Virus genome (UHGV): UHGV-0207821
From: a virus
Length of the DNA: 9,917 nt
Reading direction: 5' to 3' (one strand)
How positions within the stretch are numbered: position 1 is the stretch's first letter; the number at the start of each line of letters is the position of its first letter. Below the pieces are notes generated by a model, which saw only the letters and a list, made by a program, of their open reading frames with translations, was not told the DNA's origin and made no database searches. Below are positions 74-9,917 of this stretch, one piece after another. The translations under genes were made by a program, and so were the position numbers.

Positions 74-616
74 TTACTCGCCTTTGTTCTGTAGCAACTT
101 CTCAGGCGCGCTTCCGGTAGTTTCCATCAGGTAATCAGCCAGTATCTGTGGCAGGTTTTCGTCAAGTCTTGCACATGCGTTACATGCTTTGGCTATTTCC
201 CTTTTTAGTTCATCCAGCATATACGGCCTTATATCGGGAAAGCGCCTTTGCATTGTGAGCGGGAGGCTGTCCATGATTGATGAAATCTGACTCGCTAGTT
301 TTGAAATCGCGTAGATGCAAAACTTTGTATCAATCACCTCGCCGCGTTCGCGCTCGTTTTTAAGTTCCTGCGCTTCCGCCTGGGCCGTCATTAATCTGAT
401 TCTTACGCGTAAAAGTTCATCATCATCAATCTCGCCTTTGTCGTTTGTAAGCTGGTTAATTGCATTGTTAACCCTATTGTCTATCACGCTGGCAACATCA
501 TAAAACGCCTCACGGCCTTTACGTTCAACGGGAGTCACTCCCCACTTGTCGAATGCTGTAGCACTTACCCGGCAGCTTTGCGCCATGGTTTTTTTGTTCA
601 TCAGGTGCGATTTCAT
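74..616 (-). CDS. Terminase small subunit, lambda gpNu1-like (possible packaging-redirecting TerS homolog)
   Basis: Translation aligns along its full length with lambda Nu1 as I recall it (e.g. RLMTAQAEAQELKNERERGEVIDTKFC...MDSLPLTMQRRFPDI vs lambda RLTRAQADAQELKNARDSAEVVETAFC...LDGLPLSVQRRFPEL). Start chosen at ATG 616 because of the upstream GGGGA Shine-Dalgarno; ATG 601 and GTG 628 are alternatives. Sits directly downstream of the cos site, as in lambda. Confidence 0.85.
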   Translation of the reverse strand: MKSHLMNKKTMAQSCRVSATAFDKWGVTPVERKGREAFYDVASVIDNRVNNAINQLTNDKGEIDDDELLRVRIRLMTAQAEAQELKNERERGEVIDTKFCIYAISKLASQISSIMDSLPLTMQRRFPDIRPYMLDELKREIAKACNACARLDENLPQILADYLMETTGSAPEKLLQNKGE

Positions 617-817
617 CAATATCCCCACTTAGTTAAGGTTTCAGGTTGGTGTGTTGGTGTTATCTTTCCCTTTTTATTCATAGAGATAGAGCGAAAAACA
701 AAACCACCACCACCAACCCGAAAAGGCTCATAAATAGCGAAAATCCGCAAGGTCGCCGCCCCGTAGCCTGCCGGATCGCCGGAAAGGACCCGCCAGCCAG
801 AACGGGCCCTAATTTCA
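617..817 (-). other. Lambda-type cos site: cosN 12-mer at 750-761 plus cosB-like repeats
   Basis: Plus-strand AGGTCGCCGCCC at 750-761 is the exact reverse complement of the lambda cohesive end GGGCGGCGACCT. The minus-strand sequence just after it (TGCGGATTTTCGCTATTTATG) closely matches lambda CGCGGGTTTTCGCTATTTATG (R3 region, from memory). AGCGAAAA repeats at 690-697 and 736-743; inverted CACCAAC-rich blocks at 644-660 and 704-719 flank an AT-rich core. Confidence 0.75.
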
Positions 818-1201
818 TCAACCAATCAGCTTATAGCGACCATCCCGTGCATTGCGACGTACACGCTCAATCTTGAGGCATAGCGCCGCATCTGGCTTTT
901 TGGGGACAGGTACGCGGCAATATTCAGAAGCTCGAGGAATATTGTTTATCCAGTCGATCACTTCACTTAAATACCAGGCTTTACGCCCTTCCGTAACCTG
1001 TACGCGTTCGGGGAACTCTCCACGAGCCTCAAGGTTTAGCAATGTGCGACGGCTAAGGGTAGTAAGTTCCATCACCTGATTCATATCAACAAGGCGTTCA
1101 CTTAAACGCATTTTGTCAGCAATAGCCTTTAATTCCTCTACTGCTGGATCCGGATACATCATTTCGGCAATTGGCTTAAGGTCATTGTAATGATTCTGCA
1201 T
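818..1201 (-). CDS. AlpA/MerR-like helix-turn-helix DNA-binding protein, function unknown
   Basis: Central motif MELTTLSRRTLLNLEARGEFPERVQVTEGRKAWYLSEVIDWINN has the AlpA/excisionase-type HTH pattern. ATG at 1201 is preceded by AGGGGGA. Lies between the gpD-like gene and cos. Confidence 0.7.
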   Translation of the reverse strand: MQNHYNDLKPIAEMMYPDPAVEELKAIADKMRLSERLVDMNQVMELTTLSRRTLLNLEARGEFPERVQVTEGRKAWYLSEVIDWINNIPRASEYCRVPVPKKPDAALCLKIERVRRNARDGRYKLIG

Positions 1202-1212
1202 TGTATCCCCCT

Positions 1213-1554
1213 TTACACACGAGCCAGCGGCTGAACAGAAATACCTGAGCCAACAAACGCGGCAACCTTTGCCGACAGTTCTCTTACAGACTCAGGCCAG
1301 TTCAGAGCATCAACATTTAAAACACCTGTCTTATAAACCTGTGCCTGTGTTTTTTTCGCTGTGTCGATTTGTACAGCGGAAACATAAACCGCTTTGCCTG
1401 CGCTCGTTCCATCCCATACCACTAGCGCACCAGTTGCATCTTCCTGCATCAGTGGCGTAAACGCAGGTATTACCCCTTTATTGGCTGAAAATATCCCCAG
1501 CGTAGTAACCAGTGCTTCAGTGCCAGACATGAGTTCAGTGTAATGAGTAGCCAT
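1213..1554 (-). CDS. Head decoration protein, lambda gpD-like
   Basis: 113 aa; conserved blocks shared with lambda gpD from memory (TPLM, VVWDGT, YKTG, WPE, AAFVGSGISV vs TPLM, VAWDGT, YKSG, WPE, TAFAGTAISIV). SD AGGGGGAG precedes ATG 1554. Confidence 0.85.
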   Translation of the reverse strand: MATHYTELMSGTEALVTTLGIFSANKGVIPAFTPLMQEDATGALVVWDGTSAGKAVYVSAVQIDTAKKTQAQVYKTGVLNVDALNWPESVRELSAKVAAFVGSGISVQPLARV

Positions 1555-1563
1555 TGCTCCCCC

Positions 1564-2610
1564 TTAGCCAATGCGAACGGTAACAAAACGATTGATGCGG
1601 GCCGGTATTGGCTGTGGTGCAGAGTGCGTTTGTACGTACTCAATAGCCGGATCACCAGGCACAATATAGTTTTTCGGTGCAAGTTCGGCTTTAGTCAGCC
1701 CCATTCGGGTTAGCTCCGGATCCTGAATACCGCCATAGGCGACAATCCCCTGAAGAGCCGTATTGCCAAGCACCATCAAATCAGGATCAAGGAAATGTTT
1801 TTCAGTTCCGTCCTCGTCGGTATAACGTCCGCTGTAAACAACAATCGCAACATCGCCCATATACCCTTTAAAACTCACCGAATCACCAAGGTCTTTAAGG
1901 GCCGTTTCCAGTTCGGAATTAGAACCACGGCGGGTATCCAGAGCCTCTTTTATCGCTCTGAATGAACGGTATTTCTTCCATACATTACCGCCCATAATGA
2001 TGATATTAGTGACGCCCTCACTAAATTCTGCGTAGCTCTCAATATCATCATTTGGATCAAAAGTTTCTTTATCCTTACCTGACCACTCAGCACCGCCAGA
2101 CTGCGTGATAATATTTTGTGGTTTTATATTCCAGTCCAGTTCATAACGTTCAATACCATCGCCCTCAATGATATTTTTCCCCGTTGTGATTGCCTGAACA
2201 GCAAGCCATTCAATACGTGCACGTATAGCTTTAGCCTGATTTACAATCGCCTGTTTAACTTTAATATTACGCGCCCCAAAAGCATTGTATTGTTCAGGTG
2301 ATACACCAGCAGGGCGCACAGCTAACTTATTTGGATCAATGCTGCTTTTCGGTTTCATATAGCCAGGGCGAATTATTTTTGATTCGTATCCCTCATCTCG
2401 TGAAACTTTACTGCCCACCATAGGAGAGCAAAACGCCGCGATCGGGATATTTGGATCGTCGATCGTATCAAGAATAATGTCTCTCGATTCAAAGATTACC
2501 GAGCGAGTGAAAAACAAACTGGTAAACAACGCATTTAATTTTTTTTGCACATCTTCAGCATTAGCCACCTGCACAAGCTGTGTAGGCGAATATAAATCAA
2601 CCATACTCAT
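1564..2610 (-). CDS. Major capsid protein, lambda gpE-like (HK97 fold)
   Basis: Long collinear similarity to lambda gpE as recalled (MSMVDLYSPTQL vs MSMYTTAQL; DTRRGSNSELETALKDLG and GDVAIVVYSG essentially identical). Start is the ATG at 2610 (MSMV...) preceded by AAAGAGGA, not the ORF-track start at 2691. Confidence 0.9.
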   Translation of the reverse strand: MSMVDLYSPTQLVQVANAEDVQKKLNALFTSLFFTRSVIFESRDIILDTIDDPNIPIAAFCSPMVGSKVSRDEGYESKIIRPGYMKPKSSIDPNKLAVRPAGVSPEQYNAFGARNIKVKQAIVNQAKAIRARIEWLAVQAITTGKNIIEGDGIERYELDWNIKPQNIITQSGGAEWSGKDKETFDPNDDIESYAEFSEGVTNIIIMGGNVWKKYRSFRAIKEALDTRRGSNSELETALKDLGDSVSFKGYMGDVAIVVYSGRYTDEDGTEKHFLDPDLMVLGNTALQGIVAYGGIQDPELTRMGLTKAELAPKNYIVPGDPAIEYVQTHSAPQPIPARINRFVTVRIG

Positions 2611-2777
2611 CCTCTTTACATTCATTACAAATAATTGTGAATATATTCTATTACCGATGTCTGCTATGCGAATACATGCAAACAAGTGCAATGTTGTATA
2701 AAATATGCCGTGACAACTTCAGTGCTGATAATTCGTGTTAATGTATTTACTTCCTTTGGTCGGGATTTATGTAGCAT

Positions 2778-2810
2778 GCCGGAAAATCTATTTTTTTCCG
2801 GCATCTTTTT
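2778..2810 (+). terminator. GC hairpin with T-run in the ssb to capsid intergenic region
   Basis: GCCGGAAAA (2778-2786) pairs with TTTTCCGGC (2794-2802), followed by ATCTTTTTGTTT. The T-run is on the plus strand, so it is a weaker fit as terminator of the minus-strand ssb operon. Confidence 0.3.
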
Positions 2811-2821
2811 GTTTGCAGAAT

Positions 2822-3244
2822 TTAAAACGGTATATTATCGCCGTACGGATCATCATTCCCCGACTGTTGTTTTGCCCTGTTCAGTGCGTCAGTGGCCTGC
2901 CCCTGCTGACCTTTTTTGCCGCCCGGTCGCGCCGTTCGCGCACTGATTACGCTGTCTGCGATAACCTGCCAGCCCCGCCGCGTTTCGCCGTTCTGGCCTG
3001 TCCACTGGCTTACCTGCATGTTACCCGCCACGCTCAGGAGTTCACCCTTGCGGTGCTTTGCCAGTGCTTCGGCCTGTCTGCCAAACGCCAGGACGGATAA
3101 CCACATCGTCGCCGTTCCGTCATCTGCCTGGCTGCACGGAAGTGGGACCGCCATACTCGCCATCGTCATTTGTGTACCCTTGCTGGTGGTCTTTAACTGC
3201 GGGTCAGCCACCAGCCGCCCGTAAGCCGCTATCTGTGCTGTCAT
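2822..3244 (-). CDS. ssb: Single-stranded DNA-binding protein (SSB), short form
   Basis: OB-fold region resembles E. coli SSB (QIAAYGRLVADPQLK vs KVILVGNLGQDPEVR; WLSVLAFGRQAEALA vs WHRVVLFGKLAEVAS). Gly/Gln-rich linker and acidic C-terminal tip DDPYGDNIPF (cf. DFDDDIPF). ATGA start/stop overlap with the upstream gene. Confidence 0.85.
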   Translation of the reverse strand: MTAQIAAYGRLVADPQLKTTSKGTQMTMASMAVPLPCSQADDGTATMWLSVLAFGRQAEALAKHRKGELLSVAGNMQVSQWTGQNGETRRGWQVIADSVISARTARPGGKKGQQGQATDALNRAKQQSGNDDPYGDNIPF

Positions 3245-3503: not shown

Positions 3504-3694
3504 CCCCACTTTTTCGCCTCACTTTTTAAGCTCCCCACATGATTTCCAACCTTGTTTTTTTGTGATTCTAATATGTTGTTTTTCAATGTGTTTTTTATTC
3601 CTCACTTTTGAGCCTATATACAGATTGAAAAGTGAGGGGCGCGGTTGCTTTTTGTTCAGTTCCTGCTATCCCCTCACTTTTGCGCCTCACTTTT
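3504..3694. repeat. Iteron array with AT-rich core, candidate replication origin
   Basis: CCTCACTTTT at 3517-3526, 3600-3609, 3672-3681, 3685-3694; variant CCCCACTTTT at 3504-3513; inverted copy AAAAGTGAGG at 3628-3637 forming a palindrome with the 3600 copy. T-rich stretch 3551-3599. Immediately 3' of the replication helicase gene. Confidence 0.55.
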
Positions 3695-5109
3695 TACAGT
3701 GGGCGCACATCATCACCGTCAATAGCGATAACGCCGTCTCTTTCCAGCTTGTACAGCCAGCGCCGGAAGTTTTTCATCTCATACCCCAGCTTTTTCATAT
3801 CATCGCGCAACAACGGGATAGTGCATTTATCGCCGCGCTGTGTGCGTGACCGGATACAGCCCCATAGTGCGGCGTGATTCTCCGTCTTGTTTCCGGCCTC
3901 CTCGATGCGCTCCAGTTCAACGGGTGGGCGCGGCTTATCCACAACCACCAGCGACGTGATTAACTCCTTGTCAGCGTCGGTAAAAAGCTCCACCACACGT
4001 AAATCATATGCAGCCTCTTTCAGTTCCTCCGCGTCCTTCATTTTGGTGCAGGAGATAACCAGGGCCTCACTGTCCGCGCCTTCGCGGCGGATCCGGTACT
4101 CAGCGTCCAGAGATGCACGAAATGCACTGGAACCACGCGCCCCTTTTGTTTCATCCTTGCCGGAATGGTGAACCACCAGCACCGTGGCCCCTGTGCGTCG
4201 TTTCAGTTCGTCACATCCACGGATAAACGCCCCCATATCCCGCGCGTCATTTTCATCATTACCGCCAAAGCAACGCGCCAGCGTATCCAGAATAATCATG
4301 CGTACCGGTTTACCCGTTTCCCGTTCAACCTGGCGGGATGCGATAACCATTTCATCAACATCAAACTGGGCTGCAGGAAAAATCGGGCGGTTTACCAGGT
4401 ACAGATTTTTCACCCGTTCATCATTAACGATTTCCCATGCCTTGATACGGCGGGGGACACCAATGCCACCTTCACCGACAACATACATCACCGAACCATG
4501 CGCCACCCTGCGACCTCCCCAGTGGCGACCCGTGGCAACATGACACGCCCAGGAACACGCGAGGAACGATTTATAGGAACCGCTCGCGCCGTATGTGCTG
4601 CACAATGAATTAGCCGGAATCACGCCCTTAACGACATAATCAAGCTGTGTGTCGTACCCTGCAGATCCAATGCTCATTGGTAGCGTGGTTTTTCGCTGGC
4701 TGTATTGCTCGTCAGTAAGTATTTCCCCGCGCTCTGCCTGTTCGCGGATCCGTTGCAGGTAGTCGTGCCAGTTCTCCAGCTTCTGACTGTGCATTCCCTC
4801 AGGGTAATAATTCGCATCCCGTACACCTGCCGCCGCCAGCTTTTGCCCGATGGCATTAATATTTGACGGCTTGATGTGGCCTGCCTTGTACAGTCGGACA
4901 CAATAGCGACCATCGTCGATAATTTTCAGGCCTGCCAGTTCGTCAAGCTGGCTGTCTCCCAGCCATACAGGCGGAACATTGTCGCCAGCAAGTCGCCCGT
5001 CCTGCTCCTGCCATTGTTTCGCGTGCGCCCAGGCATCACTACCCGCAAAAATAATGACTTCGGTCATTTTGTCGTAAGGCTGTTTTTTTAAGTTCGGTGC
5101 GCTTTTCAT
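3694..5109 (-). CDS. Replication initiation helicase, RepA/DnaB-like RecA-fold ATPase with C-terminal winged-helix domain
   Basis: 471 aa. Walker A-like YGASGSYKS, Walker B-like RMIILDT, then VLVVHHSGKD, typical of RepA-like (AAA_25) helicases. C-terminal LGYEMKNFRRWLYKLERDGVIAIDGDD looks winged-helix. SD AGGGG before ATG 5109; ATGA overlap with the upstream ORF. Confidence 0.8.
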   Translation of the reverse strand: MKSAPNLKKQPYDKMTEVIIFAGSDAWAHAKQWQEQDGRLAGDNVPPVWLGDSQLDELAGLKIIDDGRYCVRLYKAGHIKPSNINAIGQKLAAAGVRDANYYPEGMHSQKLENWHDYLQRIREQAERGEILTDEQYSQRKTTLPMSIGSAGYDTQLDYVVKGVIPANSLCSTYGASGSYKSFLACSWACHVATGRHWGGRRVAHGSVMYVVGEGGIGVPRRIKAWEIVNDERVKNLYLVNRPIFPAAQFDVDEMVIASRQVERETGKPVRMIILDTLARCFGGNDENDARDMGAFIRGCDELKRRTGATVLVVHHSGKDETKGARGSSAFRASLDAEYRIRREGADSEALVISCTKMKDAEELKEAAYDLRVVELFTDADKELITSLVVVDKPRPPVELERIEEAGNKTENHAALWGCIRSRTQRGDKCTIPLLRDDMKKLGYEMKNFRRWLYKLERDGVIAIDGDDVRPL

Positions 5110-5405
5110 TTCTTGCCCCTGAATCCGTTAATCATGGTTTTCAGCTTCTGGATGTTTGCCCGTGCCCTGGCGTTGCTGGTGGGCACGTTATGCGGCGCGG
5201 TCTGTACCAGAGAAAAATCACACCGGAACTGATAAACAGGCATCACGCAATCATATTCGTAACCTTCACGGCGGTAGATTACGCGCCGTTCTTCCACGCC
5301 CTTAATCATTACCGTGCCGCCGTACTGGTCGCGGTAAATATCACCGCGCGTAAATTTAGGGTGAGTGTTGCCACTGGCAGTTAAGCCAGAATATTTAAGT
5401 TTCAT
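5106..5405 (-). CDS. Hypothetical protein, translationally coupled to the replication helicase
   Basis: 99-aa ORF; SD GGAGAA upstream of ATG 5405; stop overlaps helicase start. No family recognised. Confidence 0.55.
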   Translation of the reverse strand: MKLKYSGLTASGNTHPKFTRGDIYRDQYGGTVMIKGVEERRVIYRREGYEYDCVMPVYQFRCDFSLVQTAPHNVPTSNARARANIQKLKTMINGFRGKK

Positions 5406-5870: not shown

Positions 5871-6103
5871 AACCCCCCCCCATTTTCACAATCAGCAATC
5901 AGGATGGCTTTGGCCTCATTCAGCGCCATATCCGCACTAAGTTGCATAACCGCCAGCGAATGAGGAACGAAAGCCCCGGCATATTCTGTTTCACTGGTAG
6001 CGTGCTTATGCGCCCTGTCCGCGATAACAGAAATATCAATCGGCGCATCAATCAGTGTTTTGATTGCTTCGGCGGCTGCGTCCGGACGGGTGTTATTGCA
6101 CAT
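5843..6103 (-). CDS. Hypothetical protein, upstream half of a possible poly-G frameshift pair
   Basis: 86-aa ORF; the G9 tract encodes the GGG in ...ADCENGGGLCVMIVLIP near its C-terminus. A 10-G tract would fuse it in frame to the 5637-5870 ORF. Confidence 0.45.
   Translation of the reverse strand: MCNNTRPDAAAEAIKTLIDAPIDISVIADRAHKHATSETEYAGAFVPHSLAVMQLSADMALNEAKAILIADCENGGGLCVMIVLIP
5873..5881 (-). repeat. Homopolymeric G9 tract (C9 on plus strand) at the junction of two ORFs
   Basis: Nine consecutive C on the plus strand at 5873-5881, inside one ORF and directly upstream of the next ORF's ATG. Confidence 0.9.
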
Positions 6104-6461
6104 GGTGCACCTCCTGGCGAATACGGGCGGCGAATACCATCACGCAGCCAGCCGGGGATTGCTGACGTGCTTCCTGTTCGCTGGTGGCCTCGATGTGAAT
6201 CACGCGCGGTTGTGCCGTGCTCAGGGCGATAAAACGCCAGATAAAATTGTTCTCGCATTTCTGAATAAACAGCGTGTTTTCTTCGCGCCCTTTCCATGTT
6301 GCCGAGATATAGCCCATGTCATTGAGCATCTCGCAGGCATCCACCAGCGTATCAGCGGCTACGTGTACAGTGTTTTTACCGTCAGCCATGCAATCACGGT
6401 GCACCGCCAGGAAGGTGTATATAAATTTAGGGTGAGTTTGGGTATGCTGTGTTCCAGCCAT
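6093..6461 (-). CDS. Hypothetical protein, first gene of the leftward operon
   Basis: 122 aa from ATG 6461 (MAGTQHTQTHPKF...), SD GAGGT about 8 nt upstream. Normal amino-acid composition, unlike the junk-like translation further upstream in the same frame. Confidence 0.5.
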   Translation of the reverse strand: MAGTQHTQTHPKFIYTFLAVHRDCMADGKNTVHVAADTLVDACEMLNDMGYISATWKGREENTLFIQKCENNFIWRFIALSTAQPRVIHIEATSEQEARQQSPAGCVMVFAARIRQEVHHVQ

Positions 6462-6669
6462 AATCGTTACCTCATTTAACGGTTTGGTTAGAAGCCCGGT
6501 TAGTGTTCGCGCACTGCCGGGTTTCGTCGTTTTTATGAATCGCTCATTGTGAGATACATAGCGACCCCCATGTGAGATACACATTATATTGTGGTGATAT
6601 ACATTGCAAGTGTTTTTATATCTCACTTTTGTGTATAGTGATATACACATAACAAATTGGTGATTAACT
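6462..6669. promoter_or_regulatory. Divergent regulatory region with operator-like repeats
   Basis: Four same-orientation copies of GTGA(G/T)ATACA at 6549-6558, 6572-6581, 6593-6602, 6639-6648; inverted partial TATCTCAC at 6619-6626; palindrome GTGTATA-GTGA-TATACAC at 6631-6650 just upstream of the RHH gene. Lies between divergent gene starts at 6461 and 6670. Confidence 0.55.
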
Positions 6670-6972
6670 ATGTCTGTATACAAAAATGCAAAATCGCAAA
6701 TGACAACGATCAGGGTTCCCCACGATGTTATGGAGGGCATGGAATCCGTAAAACTGGACGGCGAAAGCAACGCCGGATTCATAGTAACCGCCATGCGCGG
6801 TGAGATCGCTCGCCGGCAGGCAGAAGGAAGAGGAGAAAATCCCTTGGTTTCTTCGCTCGATGCACTGGCGCAGGTGGAAAAAATCGGTGTCAAAGCAGCC
6901 GAGGAGATCGGGCAACTCGTCACCGTCGCGCGTGAAGAACTCCAGCGGCGCAAGGCCAAAGAACCAGAGTAA
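6670..6972 (+). CDS. Ribbon-helix-helix (CopG/Arc-like) transcriptional regulator, candidate element repressor
   Basis: N-terminal MTTIRVPHDVMEGMESVKLDGESNAGFIVTAMRGEIARRQ fits the RHH strand-helix-G-x-S-x-N-helix pattern. SD GGTGA 6 nt before ATG 6670. Charged, helical composition. Confidence 0.6.
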   Translation: MSVYKNAKSQMTTIRVPHDVMEGMESVKLDGESNAGFIVTAMRGEIARRQAEGRGENPLVSSLDALAQVEKIGVKAAEEIGQLVTVAREELQRRKAKEPE

Positions 6973-7029
6973 TCACCATCAGCGCCGTGGTGTAAGGTAT
7001 TACGGCGCATTGCTATGCAGGACAACACA

Positions 7030-7203
7030 ATGACCGATAAAGAATTGACCAAAACATTATCACCGGCACGGAAAAGACGGCGCAGAAAGATAGAGCATGA
7101 ATCAGAAAGATTCGCGCCATGTGCTTTTGCTCTTGAGAAATTCCTTAAAGAGCACAGGAAAAAGCTCTCGTTGCAAACCTTGGAACGAACCAAATCTGAC
7201 TGA
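7030..7203 (+). CDS. Small basic protein, hypothetical
   Basis: 57 aa from ATG 7030 (SD AGGA 7 nt upstream); very basic (RKRRRRK). Co-oriented with the RHH gene and followed by a terminator. ATG 7015 is an alternative start. Confidence 0.4.
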   Translation: MTDKELTKTLSPARKRRRRKIEHESERFAPCAFALEKFLKEHRKKLSLQTLERTKSD

Positions 7204-7676
7204 TCACATTGCCCACCAGCCGCAAATGTGGCATTGTTGGTGATGCTCATGCGTTGGGGATAACGTGTAGCTTGTGTCGAGGGGCCACCGTAGCGGGTGG
7301 CCTTTGTTTTGCCTGTTATCCGGCAATTGTGGCGCTTCGCCACACGGTTGATATAATCCCACTGCTCAGATTCATTTTTTGCGCAGTAGGTTAATTGTTC
7401 ACAAAGGCGCTCCGGCAACGGGGCGCTTTTTGTTTTTATTAGTTTGTAGAAACCTGACTCAGAGATAATGCTCATATTCTGATTGCCGTCAGGGGGGTAA
7501 GTTAAATTTACTCCCTTTTCATCAAGCATCTGCAACGCTCTGGCGTTAATAATATTGGTTTCACTCCCGCCAATAAGGCCGGAAATAACCGGAATAATTT
7601 CAGCGAAATTTTGCAGATTCTGGTTTTCAGGCCGAACGAAGCCCCGCCCCTGTACAGGCGTATATCCAGTATTCAT
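7204..7676 (-). CDS. Possible Bro-N/antirepressor-like protein; 3' end undefined because the frame has no stop until 6093
   Basis: N-terminal ~125 aa from ATG 7676 look protein-like; NMSIISESGFYKLIKTKSAP resembles the Bro-N/antirepressor signature (weak, from memory). Beyond about 7300 the translation turns Cys/Ser-rich and runs antisense through the RHH operon and the operator region. The 7204 end is arbitrary. Confidence 0.3.
7283..7310 (+). terminator. Rho-independent terminator of the plus-strand regulator operon
   Basis: GGCCACC (7283-7289), loop GTAGCG, GGTGGCC (7296-7302), then TTTGTTTT (7303-7310). Confidence 0.55.
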
Positions 7677-7728: not shown

Positions 7729-7917
7729 TTAGTGAACTGCCTCGCGGCTGTCCTTCCATGCCAGAACTTCGGATAAAGACCAGCCAACGGAACGACCACC
7801 GAGTTTACGCCGTGATGGGAATTGTCCAGTCTTCTCCAGGCGATACCGACATGAGCGGCTCAGGCCTGTAAGTTGCTGACATTCTTTTTCACGTATAAAG
7901 CGATCTGTGCTTAACAC
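7729..7917 (-). CDS. alpA: AlpA-family (excisionase/Vis-like) transcriptional regulator
   Basis: LSTDRFIREKECQQLTGLSRSCRYRLEKTGQFPSRRKLGGRSVGWSLSEVLAWKD is a classic AlpA HTH. Start proposed at GTG 7917, preceded by AAAGGGGGA. The ORF-track ATG at 8025 would add a low-complexity T/N/P-rich extension. Confidence 0.7.
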   Translation of the reverse strand: MLSTDRFIREKECQQLTGLSRSCRYRLEKTGQFPSRRKLGGRSVGWSLSEVLAWKDSREAVH

Positions 7918-8285
7918 AATTCCCCCTTTGTTGTTTCTTAAAGAGTCATTGGGTGGATTATTGGGTTGGGTTGTGTCGGATTGTGTCAGGGTGTTTATGG
8001 AATGGCAAACACTGGTGGCGGTCATTTTACAGAAGTGGGGGTAGTGAGAATAAAAATCCTTTTAATTCATTATGATGTAAAGGCATAAAATTCTGTTTTT
8101 ACGCCTTTTTTACATGTTTTTAAGAGTGATTCGCCAATGTACAAAAAGCCAGTAAAACGACTGAAAATCAACTTTTTAGGGTGTCAGTCAGATGATAATC
8201 AAGTTTGTTCCAGATTGTTCGCCGTTGTTCGTCGTGGTGTCTCGTTGTTTCACGTTGTGTCCGTTCTAAAAAATCGCAAAAAAAA

Positions 8286-9533
8286 TTATATTTCTCTGGC
8301 TATTGGCAGTGTGGTTACGTTTTCGTGAGTGCCTGCCAGTATCTCTAACCGCTCTGTCCACATGTCCAGCGCATTACGTTTCGCATCGAGATAACGGGAG
8401 TGGTTATAGACTCGCTGCATCCCTGGCATCTGGTGAGCGGTGAGTTGTTCGACAATATGCGGATCCACGCCTAAATCGTTCAGCATCGTGGTAAACGTGC
8501 GCCGTATATCGTGTAGTGACCAGTGCGGATGGTTTAATTTTTTGTGCATGAATCTGCCGTATTGCGACACACTGGCTTCCTGTTTCAGTTCCCCGAGTAA
8601 TAGCCCTGTGTGTCTGTTCTGCTCCACCAGCTGCGTGACGAACGGTAAAATGCTTTCCGGTATTGGCCTGAATATGGCGACCTTCGTTTTGCTGTGCTCT
8701 TTCGGTACTGTCCAGAGCATTTCCTTAAAATCCCACTCCCTGATCTCCGATAATCTCAGTTCTCCGGTTCGGCAGCCGAACACAATCAGGAGGCGGATTA
8801 GTGCGCTGTAGTAGGGCGGGAATATTTTTTTATCCAGCGCCTGTAATAATTCGCCAAGTTCTTTGTTGCTCAGCACGCGTTCGCTTATGCCTGGTTTTTT
8901 GCCAACGTCCACCACGTTAAGATCATCCAGAACGTTACTGACTGCGTAGCGACGTTTACGGCAGAACTTAAGCGCCTGTTTACACGCCTGCATCATGTGA
9001 CCAGACGTTACAGGGGATTTTTTGCGTATCCGGTCAAAACAGGCCAGCCAGTGACGTAACTCGCATTTATCCAGTGGCATATTGCCAATATGCTGTATGA
9101 CGTGATTATTCAGGCGGCTTTTCAGGCATACGTAATCGACACGGTTTTCCTTTACGTGCATTTCCAGCCAGTAGCTGATCGCATCACCCACCGTTACCGG
9201 CTTTAGTGCTTCCTGTATGGAGTAATTAAGCTCATGGCGTGGATTTTTTCCTTCTGCCAGCCATGCGCGACACTGTGCCGCTTTTTCCCTGGCTGCTTTC
9301 AGGCTCAGATCAGGATAATTTCCCAGCTTCAGGCGTTCCGGTGATACCTGGCGTCCAGCTCCTGCTCTGTAGGTGAAATACCAGGTTAACAAGCCGCTGG
9401 TGGAATGCCTGACGCTCAGGTTTCCACCGTCATTAAGAAATGTGGTTTTTGGGGCTGGTGTGCCGTTGATTTTTCTTAGCTGTGTATCGCTCAGTTTGTT
9501 AAGTGCTCTGCTCATAATTTTGAATCCGGTCAT
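8286..9533 (-). CDS. int: Tyrosine site-specific integrase, P4-family type
   Basis: N-terminal LSDTQLRKI...DGGNLSVRHS...LLTWYFTYR typical of P4-family integrases; C-terminal catalytic region with HDIRRTF and VYNHSRY (tyrosine nucleophile). ATG at 9533; the ORF track starts at GTG 9536, and ATG 9515 is also possible. Confidence 0.9.
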   Translation of the reverse strand: MTGFKIMSRALNKLSDTQLRKINGTPAPKTTFLNDGGNLSVRHSTSGLLTWYFTYRAGAGRQVSPERLKLGNYPDLSLKAAREKAAQCRAWLAEGKNPRHELNYSIQEALKPVTVGDAISYWLEMHVKENRVDYVCLKSRLNNHVIQHIGNMPLDKCELRHWLACFDRIRKKSPVTSGHMMQACKQALKFCRKRRYAVSNVLDDLNVVDVGKKPGISERVLSNKELGELLQALDKKIFPPYYSALIRLLIVFGCRTGELRLSEIREWDFKEMLWTVPKEHSKTKVAIFRPIPESILPFVTQLVEQNRHTGLLLGELKQEASVSQYGRFMHKKLNHPHWSLHDIRRTFTTMLNDLGVDPHIVEQLTAHQMPGMQRVYNHSRYLDAKRNALDMWTERLEILAGTHENVTTLPIAREI

Positions 9534-9538
9534 CACAA

Positions 9539-9562
9539 TTAACTACACCATTAACTACACCG
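9539..9562. repeat. Perfect 12-bp tandem repeat (x2) abutting the integrase start
   Basis: TTAACTACACC(A) at 9539-9550 and TTAACTACACC(G) at 9551-9562. Confidence 0.8.
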
Positions 9563-9779: not shown

Positions 9780-9873
9780 ACCGGCGCAGAGGAGACAATG
9801 CCGGATTTAAGACGCGGATGCACTGCTGTGTGTACTGTAGAGTCTGGCGGATGTCGACAGACTCTATTTTTTT
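9780..9873 (+). ncRNA. mcaS: About 94-nt sRNA with four GGA motifs, McaS(IsrA)-like
   Basis: Promoter-to-terminator unit with no ORF. 5' stem-loop CCGGC...GCCGG; GGA motifs in single-stranded or loop contexts (GAGGAGA, CCGGATT, GCGGATG twice); terminal hairpin plus U7. Sequence matches my recollection of E. coli McaS, a CsrA-binding sRNA; not verifiable here. Confidence 0.55.
9838..9873 (+). terminator. Rho-independent terminator of the sRNA
   Basis: TAGAGTCTG (9838-9846) pairs with CAGACTCTA (9858-9866); 11-nt loop containing GGA; followed by TTTTTTT (9867-9873). Confidence 0.7.
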
Positions 9874-9917
9874 ATGCAGTTTTAACTTTGCAGATAGCCG
9901 CATTCTCGCCGGAATTG

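Follow-up and report, generated by a model that had tools for sequence, protein, structure and literature searches.

We identified the 9,917-nucleotide stretch of DNA analyzed here (the window) as a classical Gram-negative cos-type PICI of the EcCICFT073 type, with positions 1213–2604 lying in its late/packaging module. This region encodes a gpE-like major capsid protein (E') and a gpD/SHP-like head decoration protein (D'), and we regard their identification as intact, selected orthologs of EcCICFT073 c1499 and c1500 as established. The E–D pair itself is already known, having been annotated and published in 2018, and the present hit is a re-discovery; new in this analysis are the separate clade formed by the satellite E and D proteins, the fixed contrast in gene order, the purifying selection, and the prevalence of the pair in E. 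coli. As for function, the best overall explanation, to which we assign a probability of roughly 45%, is that E' and D' are assembly-competent, helper-compatible shell parts within a PICI late module. Their role would show whether classical PICIs supply structural parts of their own particles, and it bears on the evolution of satellites from full dependence toward capsid-forming elements.

Architecture and boundaries of the island

The identity of the element as a PICI follows from its domain content, att repeats, iterons, and cosN, which fit this class, and from a gene order that corresponds to EcCICFT073: int, alpA, rep with an iteron origin, ssb, E', D', an AlpA-like HTH gene, cosN, and TerS. 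The features are as follows.

74–616, minus strand: full-length Nu1-type small terminase (TerS) homolog of 180 aa, not an Rpp (Pfam Phage_Nu1, 9.3e-24)
750–761, minus strand: cosN, the exact 12-nt lambda cohesive-end sequence GGGCGGCGACCT (single exact match; 0 in 200 shuffles)
818–1201, minus strand: second AlpA-family HTH gene, tightly coupled to D' (Pfam Phage_AlpA, 1.4e-08; PHROG 2790, 1.8e-48)
1213–1554, minus strand: D', gpD/SHP-like head decoration gene, 113 aa (PF02924, HDPD; PHROG 49)
1564–2604, minus strand: E', gpE-like major capsid gene, 346 aa (PF03864, Phage_cap_E; PHROG 29)
2605–2821, minus strand: AT-rich intergenic region upstream of E' (GC 0.39), with a hairpin at 2776–2804 and a weak sigma-70-like candidate site at 2672–2645 from consensus scans
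2822–3244, minus strand: SSB gene (Pfam SSB, 9.7e-16)
3504–3696, both orientations: about six copies of the iteron CCTCACTTTT, a candidate replication origin directly 3' of rep
3694–5109, minus strand: RepA-type helicase/replication initiator (Pfam AAA_25, 3.2e-44; PHROG 2850)
7729–8025, minus strand: alpA (Pfam Phage_AlpA, 9.2e-18)
8286–9536, minus strand: tyrosine integrase (Pfam Arm-DNA-bind_3 and Phage_integrase)
9537–9562, plus strand: att core repeat AATTAACTACACCATTAACTACACCG at the integrase end of the island (exact match)

The full extent of the element was obtained from island L001 of E. coli TW10590, which is 98.7% identical to the window. Beyond the window's left edge, L001 continues with one 93-aa ORF, the second copy of the 26-bp att repeat, and then chromosomal smrA, and its att copies lie 10,209 bp apart. 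The island is approximately 10.2–10.4 kb in size and occupies a chromosomal intergenic site between mcaS/abgR and smrA. Because L001 ends at the att repeat only one small ORF past the left edge, the element is without a portal, protease, or scaffold gene; none was found in the window or in L001 up to the repeat, and TerL, tail, and lysis genes were likewise not found in the ~10.2-kb island between the att copies. The first-pass annotation had described a satellite carrying lambda-type E followed by D in reversed order beside an HTH gene, cos, and Nu1, and apparently lacking portal, protease, and scaffold. The PICI architecture, the Pfam and BLAST matches, the exact cosN, and the L001 boundary bear out this description, and its caveat that head genes might lie beyond the left edge can be dropped.

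Other characteristics of the class were also observed. An integrase lies at one end with flanking att repeats, alpA lies beside int, and every assigned gene is co-oriented on the minus strand. The island brings its own replication initiator, and the candidate iteron origin behind that gene agrees in position with the published PICI origin location (PMC6092414), although the initiator is a RepA-type helicase rather than the D5-type primase of EcCICFT073. The size of the island lies within the 10–20 kb range, its gene content includes neither lysis nor tail genes nor a full set of head genes, and its cos is of the helper type. An Rpp that redirects helper TerS, another hallmark, was not found in the island: the terminase-related gene encodes a full-length Nu1 homolog that is 37% identical to lambda Nu1 over 179 aa, the C-terminal half included, whereas EcCICFT073 encodes a 144-aa Rpp. 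RppA of EcCICFT073 gave no BLAST match to this TerS, and Rpps in published work measure 144–153 aa.

The two islands share a late module of E, D, a small ORF, cos with a terminase-related gene, a 93-aa ORF (86% identical), and att. They differ in the AlpA-like HTH gene, which is replaced in EcCICFT073 by a 137-aa ORF without similarity to it, and in the att site (mcaS–smrA in the window island); moreover, the window island has neither the PerC-like gene of EcCICFT073 nor its 68-aa ORF upstream of E. An ORF of 68–70 aa abutting E in EcCICFT073 and in an Edwardsiella island was considered as a hidden scaffold and rejected, as it matched no Pfam family and nothing in the window corresponds to it. 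Membership in the cf-PICIs is ruled out by the gene content: capsid, decoration, and TerS genes are present, but genes for portal, protease, and TerL are missing. The flanking mcaS/abgR and smrA likewise separate the island from helper-embedded PICIs. Promoter and terminator scans upstream of E' returned weak consensus matches, no more than in shuffled sequence; the Rfam scan detected the chromosomal McaS sRNA and no island RNA, and the tRNA scan found none.

Capsid and decoration proteins: family, clade, and selection

E' was assigned the ATG start with a strong Shine-Dalgarno sequence that RefSeq uses in relatives, giving 346 aa, while the mechanical ORF reaches 2691. The protein scored 140.5 bits against Phage_cap_E (8.6e-41; cutoff, 22.9) and 2.6e-90 against PHROG 29, with 42% identity to lambda gpE along its whole length and 55% identity to c1499. 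Its AlphaFold2 model (pTM 0.81) has as its top Foldseek match 3BQW, the c1499 crystal structure (TM 0.90), and scored 0.88 against lambda gpE (7SJ5). The profile match above the curated threshold, together with the predicted HK97-type fold, places E' in the gpE family. E' is colinear with lambda gpE over its full length with indels of only 1–4 aa, and no domain-level change was found in the alignment. In a clade-contrast scan, the divergence was distributed over the N-arm (1–20), residues 41–50, the spine helix (121–130), and residues 331–340, and no region of E' was both satellite-conserved and phage-different enough to suggest a mechanism. At a single position, the lambda W308A substitution renders gpE assembly-deficient (PMC11674207); the equivalent residue is Trp in all 63 phage-type representatives and Tyr in 22 of the 45 PICI-type representatives, including E' of the window, where it is residue 313. 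Judging from the alignment, the satellite capsid protein may assemble differently.

D' scored 56.2 bits against HDPD (4.6e-15; cutoff, 29.1); it shares 40% identity with lambda gpD across 78 aa and 54% with c1500. Its single-chain AlphaFold2 model (pLDDT 87.5) matches phage 21 SHP (1TD3) with TM scores of 0.85/0.93 and an rmsd of 1.4 Å, so that the profile score above threshold and the predicted gpD fold assign it to the gpD/SHP family. E' and D' resemble lambda gpE/gpD and phage 21 SHP in Pfam family, predicted fold, and full-length colinearity. They differ from the lambda proteins in that identity reaches only 40–42%, the gene order is inverted, no portal, protease/scaffold, FI, or FII gene is adjacent, E' carries Tyr in place of Trp308, and D' diverges in its first 30 residues. 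In the lambda capsid, it is the N-terminus of gpD that pairs with the E-loop and N-arm of gpE (PMC5701804).

Among the loci surveyed, the order was always E–D in satellites and always D–E in phages; all 25 lambda-type head modules that contained both genes showed the reverse of the window's order. In the satellite loci, E' and D' were always adjacent and translationally coupled. In the window, both genes are preceded by strong ribosome-binding sites, and D' begins 9 nt past the E' stop codon, behind GGGGGAG. Islands of Kluyvera, Superficieibacter, Cedecea, Kosakonia, and Serratia retain the HTH gene at 818–1201 in its place behind D'. The satellite E and D proteins form their own clade, at most 44% identical to any phage-context homolog. 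Both genes are under strong purifying selection, with dN/dS values of 0.03–0.09 for E' and 0.06–0.15 for D' across Escherichia, Kluyvera, Superficieibacter, Cedecea, and Kosakonia. Of 5,426 complete E. coli genomes, 397 (~7%) carry the pair, and in a spread sample of 40 of these 397 genomes, the annotation was major capsid and head decoration protein throughout, with the exception of one partial match. The separate clade, the fixed inverted order, and the strong purifying selection argue that the genes are used rather than left over.

One metagenome scaffold from sample ERZ28600228 (L069) carries an in-frame fusion of lambda E (aa 1–222) to PICI E' (aa 223–342), followed by PICI D' and the HTH gene. 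As a single contig, it may be either a real recombinant or an assembly artifact.

Possible roles of E' and D'

Experimental evidence comes from EcCICFT073, the prototype Gram-negative cos PICI, which carries the pair as c1499/c1500 (PMC6092414). Its DNA packaged with lambda was all phage-sized, and deletion of c1499 (E) or c1500 (D) neither relieved lambda interference nor changed island transfer by the CFT073 resident prophages (PMC6092414; reviewed in PMC6893505). These deletions concern a homolog 55% identical to E', with interference assayed against lambda and transfer assayed with the resident prophages. Our literature searches for later functional work on PICI capsid and decoration genes returned nothing beyond these 2018 deletions.

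We tentatively propose the following mechanism, in which E' acts as a shell protein and D' as a cement on helper parts. E' would be an assembly-competent HK97-fold shell protein, and D', modeled as a single chain, would be a co-evolved trimeric cement for the E' lattice. As portal, protease, and scaffold genes are missing from the island, E' would have to use those of the helper, assembling on the portal, protease/scaffold, and chaperones of a lambdoid phage. The products would be normal-size (T=7) heads, built of E' alone or mixed with helper gpE, and each would hold roughly four island units from one cos site to another. In the laboratory, E' and D' would be redundant with helper E and D. 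The benefit would be satellite transfer that is robust to the loss, interruption, or incompatibility of helper shell genes, which could matter in a lineage whose relatives integrate within helper head genes.

Several observations favor the interpretation of E' and D' as shell parts. E' is colinear with lambda gpE and has the predicted fold of lambda gpE and 3BQW, D' has the predicted gpD/SHP fold, and both genes are under purifying selection in five genera. A cement is useful only on its cognate shell lattice, so the constant adjacency and coupling of E' and D' point in the same direction. The phage-sized DNA and the missing deletion phenotype of the prototype are what would be expected of redundant parts. 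Furthermore, helper-embedded PICIs (11capE type; Williams lab, PMC10111431) carry a near-identical E'–D'–HTH–TerS module, the protein identity of their E' being 98% for E. coli 95-3322 (L062) and 79–85% for Cedecea and Kosakonia islands. Unlike the window island with its chromosomal intergenic site, these elements sit inside the helper prophage: L062 and two further islands with the module (L007 and L008) split the helper's own E gene, and another (L064) splits its portal gene. Helper E and satellite E' coexist in one locus in these relatives and have different best references (lambda E and window E', respectively). Nevertheless, the missing deletion phenotype suits many other roles equally well, and islands outside any helper retain E' and D' as well, so serving as a backup for an interrupted helper gene cannot be their general function. 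The Tyr at the Trp308-equivalent position in satellites (22/45) also speaks against helper-compatible shell parts, and the compatibility of E' with helper scaffold and portal is assumed, its identity to the helper protein being 42%.

The first-pass annotation had proposed size redirection, in which E' would join or replace the helper capsid protein to force a smaller shell, with D' stabilizing the small lattice; such a shell would fit one 10-kb island copy. An island about one-fifth of the lambda genome, with a capsid homolog but no portal, protease, or scaffold, would suit such a role, as would the distinctness of E' from all phage-context homologs (at most 44% identity) and its Tyr at the Trp308-equivalent position. 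The precedent named in that annotation for Gram-negative PICIs corresponds to a proposal of redirection by a capsid homolog made for the Pasteurella island PmCI172; the proven case is Ccm of the Gram-positive SaPIbov5 (PMC6092414, PMC6893505). Ccm is likewise a satellite homolog of the helper major capsid protein in a cos-packaged island. However, it is ~23% identical to the helper protein, has no partner decoration gene, and demonstrably yields small isometric capsids, and its deletion restores phage titers (PMC6893505), whereas the prototype showed neither a size change nor a deletion phenotype (PMC6092414). The alignment and modeling against lambda gpE and gpD that had been suggested to locate curvature-altering changes confirmed the same predicted folds and colinearity but singled out no size-altering region: beyond the 1–4-aa indels, there is no insertion, deletion, or domain change, and the divergence, N-arm included, is spread. 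Moreover, cos packaging of multimers into full heads requires no small shell. Size redirection, and with it a small-lattice cement, therefore finds no support in the prototype; for the present variant, with its 55% identity to the prototype protein, it is likewise unsupported, and we consider it very doubtful rather than excluded.

Alternatively, E', D', or both could be poison subunits that spoil head assembly by the helper or a competing lambdoid phage, beside the terminase-based hijack. Several interference mechanisms are typical of each PICI, the divergence of E' (42% identity) would suffice for defective mixed capsomers, and the substitution at the assembly-critical Trp308 position is confined to satellites. 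Because Rpp causes the interference of EcCICFT073, alone blocks lambda, and was intact in the published single deletions, any contribution of E would have been masked. We still judge this unlikely, as a poison subunit needs no co-evolving cement protein, the island requires working heads for its own transfer, deletion neither raised nor lowered that transfer (PMC6092414), and the strong purifying selection along the full length of both proteins is more in keeping with a structural than with a blocking role. A non-structural or indirect role, as a decoy or trigger for capsid-sensing defense or as homology for recombination with helper head genes, appears highly improbable. Elongated PICIs with captured helper late genes are on record (PMC10111431), and the L069 fusion would fit recombination if it is not an artifact of its single contig; however, homology alone would not be expected to maintain the protein (saturated synonymous change with low dN), and nothing observed links the genes to defense. 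Finally, the genes could be what is left of a captured phage head module in decay, serving no function today, as the lack of a deletion phenotype in the prototype might suggest (PMC6092414). We give this a negligible chance: the dN/dS values rule out a pseudogene or relic, the pair is full length in 395 of the 397 carrier E. coli genomes, and the gene order and strong ribosome-binding sites are retained.

In a rather improbable variant of the shell-part interpretation, E' and D' might form a satellite-specific lattice on helper portal, scaffold, and protease, so that the transducing heads would be satellite-encoded. The traveling D', the inverted order, and the satellite-only Trp-to-Tyr change would then be signs of a lattice that keeps out or outcompetes helper subunits and that might differ in size with natural helpers. 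Such an island would stand between classical PICIs, whose virion parts are all borrowed, and cf-PICIs, which take only their tails from the helper. The cf-PICIs (EcCIEDL933) share the int–alpA–rep backbone and an own capsid protein with the window island; however, they encode capsid, protease, portal, connectors, HNH, TerS, and TerL, whereas the window island encodes only shell, cement, and TerS. Capsid genes are the commonest late genes in Gram-negative PICIs, being present in 21 of 29 reference islands (PMC10111431).

Layout, boundaries and kinship of the island

Every assigned gene of the window lies on the minus strand, in the following arrangement.

Features of the window
8286-9536, minus: tyrosine integrase
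7729-8025, minus: alpA
between alpA and the DUF4222 gene, minus: block of small ORFs, one Icd-like
5106-5405, minus: DUF4222 gene
3694-5109, minus: RepA/AAA_25 helicase gene
3504-3696, after the helicase gene: iterons CCTCACTTTT
between the iterons and the SSB gene, minus: small ORF
2822-3244, minus: SSB gene
1564-2604, minus: gpE-like major capsid gene (E'; Pfam Phage_cap_E, 8.6e-41)
1666-1668, minus: E' residue Y313, equivalent to lambda Trp308
1213-1554, minus: gpD-like decoration gene (D'; Pfam HDPD, 4.6e-15)
818-1201, minus: second AlpA-family HTH gene
750-761: exact lambda cohesive-end sequence (cosN) GGGCGGCGACCT, none being expected by chance
74-616, minus: full-length Nu1-type small terminase gene

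The first-pass annotation had described a gpE-like gene followed by a gpD-like gene, the reverse of the lambda order, and then an HTH gene, cos and Nu1. Pfam matches, alignments and structural models bear out the inverted pair at the coordinates given there, and the three elements named after it are all present. The E', D' and HTH genes probably form a single operon, since the gaps between them are 9–11 nt and a strong Shine-Dalgarno sequence precedes each. The first copy of a 26-bp direct repeat lies at 9537-9562. In the island of E. coli TW10590, which is 98.7% identical to the window, a 93-aa ORF is the sole gene past the left edge of the window; the second repeat copy and then the chromosomal gene smrA come after it. 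The right flank carries the chromosomal McaS/IsrA sRNA (9780-9875, plus strand; Rfam RF00115, 118 bits), which places the insertion between mcaS/abgR and smrA. Together, these repeats and flanks define an island of 10.2–10.4 kb. The whole element (window plus TW10590 left end) lacks genes for portal, protease and scaffold, for the large terminase, and for tail and lysis. The first-pass reading that the first three are absent therefore holds, and its reservation that head genes might lie beyond the left edge falls.

This architecture is that of a classical Gram-negative cos-type PICI. For comparison, the prototype EcCICFT073 was taken from the CFT073 chromosome; it shares the layout and ends with major capsid, head decoration, a small ORF, then Rpp and an ORF of 93 aa, with identities to the window island proteins of 55% (E), 54% (D) and 86% (93-aa ORF). 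The two islands differ in att site, in replication gene (a RepA-type helicase here, a primase in EcCICFT073), in the gene after D (an AlpA-like HTH against an unrelated 137-aa ORF) and in the terminase-related gene, which here is a 180-aa full-length Nu1 homologue, whereas the EcCICFT073 type is an Rpp of 144–153 aa. The Nu1 homologue is 37% identical to lambda Nu1 across 179 aa, C-terminal half included, and has no BLAST similarity to RppA; judged by sequence, its route may be direct recruitment of the helper large terminase rather than redirection of the helper TerS. It is secure that the E'-D' region is the late module of a PICI and that E' and D' are orthologues of c1499 and c1500 of EcCICFT073. 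In EcCICFT073 (L003, 13463-13669) and in an Edwardsiella helper-embedded PICI (L064, 9789-10001), a 68–70-aa ORF ends in a stop codon that overlaps the start of the capsid gene. This ORF matched nothing in Pfam and lacks an equivalent in the window, where the 217 nt upstream of the capsid gene are AT-rich and non-coding.

A satellite clade of capsid and decoration genes

Over its full length E' shares 42% identity with lambda gpE, and D' shares 40% with gpD across the C-terminal 78 residues; both alignments are colinear, with indels of just 1–4 residues. AlphaFold2 modelling gave a structure for E' (pTM 0.81) that superposes with a TM of 0.88 on lambda gpE (7SJ5) and one for D' (pLDDT 87.5) that superposes on phage 21 SHP and lambda gpD with TM 0.85–0.93 and rmsd 1.4 Å. 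The top structural match of the E' model, PDB 3BQW ("putative capsid protein of prophage (E. coli CFT073)"), is exactly c1499.

In a search of 5.8 billion proteins, the identities of E' homologues were bimodal, with one set at 50–99% and the other at or below 44%, and the two sets split apart in a neighbour-joining tree. Clade membership agreed with genomic context at every context examined. Lambda-type loci held both genes in 25 of 26 cases, with D before E in all 25 and the order Nu1-A-W-B-C-D-E wherever the locus reached that far; a D-E fusion on another phage contig kept the same order. In contrast, loci of the 50–99% set (from Kluyvera, Superficieibacter, Cedecea, Kosakonia, Serratia, Edwardsiella and E. 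coli) read int-alpA-rep ... E-D, usually with HTH and TerS genes next, and none of those examined carried its own head module. The inverted E-D order is therefore a trait that the satellite clade shares. No close phage relative of E' was found among 50,697 phage records, the best tblastn match being only 42% identical.

Both genes are under purifying selection, with dN/dS of 0.03–0.09 for E' and 0.06–0.15 for D', synonymous sites being near saturation between genera. At a threshold of 80% nucleotide identity, 397 of 5,426 complete E. coli genomes carry the pair, 395 of them at full length, and it occupies at least three integration sites: mcaS-smrA, clpS-cspD and the interior of a lambdoid prophage E gene. 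In helper-embedded relatives, the helper's lambda-type D and split E share the locus with satellite E' and D', which are clearly distinct from the presumed helper's proteins. The lambda gpE mutant W308A is soluble and assembly-deficient (PDB 7SJ5; PMC11674207). The equivalent residue is Trp in 63/63 phage-type cluster representatives and Tyr in 22/45 PICI-type representatives, the window included; on these alignments, it is the one site where the satellite clade relaxes a residue invariant in the phage clade. The change is conservative and offers a possible lead at residue level.

Possible roles of E' and D'

That Gram-negative PICIs carry capsid and decoration genes is known, and the feature has been published and annotated. 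In c1499 and c1500, Fillol-Salom et al. 2018 recognised homologues of this kind and asked whether they work like Ccm of SaPIbov5 (PMC6092414), and the helper-embedded-PICI paper reported a major capsid gene in 21 of 29 reference Gram-negative PICIs, dispensable for transfer (PMC10111431). Literature searches found no later functional work on these genes, and the role of such conserved satellite genes is a worthwhile question. The first-pass annotation had proposed that the capsid homologue could force a smaller shell, stabilised by the gpD-like cement. Size redirection is contradicted for the prototype: DNA packaged with lambda was entirely phage-sized, and deletion of c1499 or c1500 neither restored lambda plaques nor affected island transfer by resident prophages (PMC6092414). 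A review by Dokland likewise describes EcCICFT073 as having a capsid homologue yet normal-size capsids, with lambda at least (PMC6893505). This role thus failed its one experimental test, made in a prototype whose c1499 is just 55% identical to E'.

In the reading we favor, E' would be a shell protein competent for assembly, with D' as its cognate cement. The E-loop and N-arm of lambda gpE pair with the N-terminus of gpD (PMC5701804); because D' always accompanies E', E' would be expected to form a lattice, and because the island lacks portal, protease and scaffold, that lattice would be assembled on helper parts. Colinear sequence and the phage-sized DNA of the prototype point to heads of normal T=7 size. 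By our arithmetic, such a head would hold about four 10.3-kb units, a load inside the packaging limits usually quoted for lambda. E' and D' would be redundant under laboratory conditions and useful when helper shell genes are interrupted, as in the helper-embedded relatives, or mismatched. It is also possible that E' and D' interfere with the helper as poison subunits; Rpp alone blocks lambda, so single mutants would have hidden any share that E' has in interference. However, poison subunits are hard to square with a co-evolving D' and with an island that itself needs heads. A non-structural role is a further possibility, and genetic decay was ruled out by the dN/dS values. The clade structure, the selection data and the Trp/Tyr difference sharpen the question of what E' and D' do, although the window alone does not settle it.

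Signs of recombination and further observations

In L061, an E. coli island that occupies the window's att site, E' (9350-10390) is 83.5% identical to window E' (dS 1.16), whereas the adjoining D' (8999-9340) is 96.5% identical to window D' (dS 0.29), a disparity that indicates probable recombination breakpoints inside the E'-D' module. A metagenome scaffold (L069, 2801-4431; sample ERZ28600228) carries an in-frame chimeric capsid gene, of which residues 1–222 are essentially lambda gpE and residues 223–342 essentially window E'. Lambda C and D lie upstream of it, and a PICI D' (96% identical) and PICI HTH gene downstream. The junction falls at about nt 664–667, and no identical stretch of 12 nt or longer is common to lambda E and window E'. 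The chimera represents either true recombination between helper and satellite or an error of assembly. Many further lambda gpE matches came from Bacillales, Actinomycetes, Bacteroidota and other unrelated taxa (L010-L025 and other short contigs); these contigs are short, low in coverage and 100% lambda sequence, which looks like lambda DNA contamination of the assemblies.

A single uninterrupted 527-aa ORF (6093-7676, minus) begins shortly after alpA and extends through the end of the Icd-like gene, with counterparts of 428 aa in EcCICFT073 (L003, 7767-9053, plus) and 398 aa in L061 (14403-15599, minus). RefSeq annotates only an Icd-like C-terminus of about 66 aa and an antisense YlcI/YnfO gene there, and Pfam and Rfam gave no match. 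Across the first 375 nt of the ORF, the window and EcCICFT073 are 94% identical, against 55% for the capsid proteins, and pN/pS is about 0.34, from 18 differences. By its sequence, the region seems likelier to be a conserved control element at the DNA or RNA level than to encode a protein.
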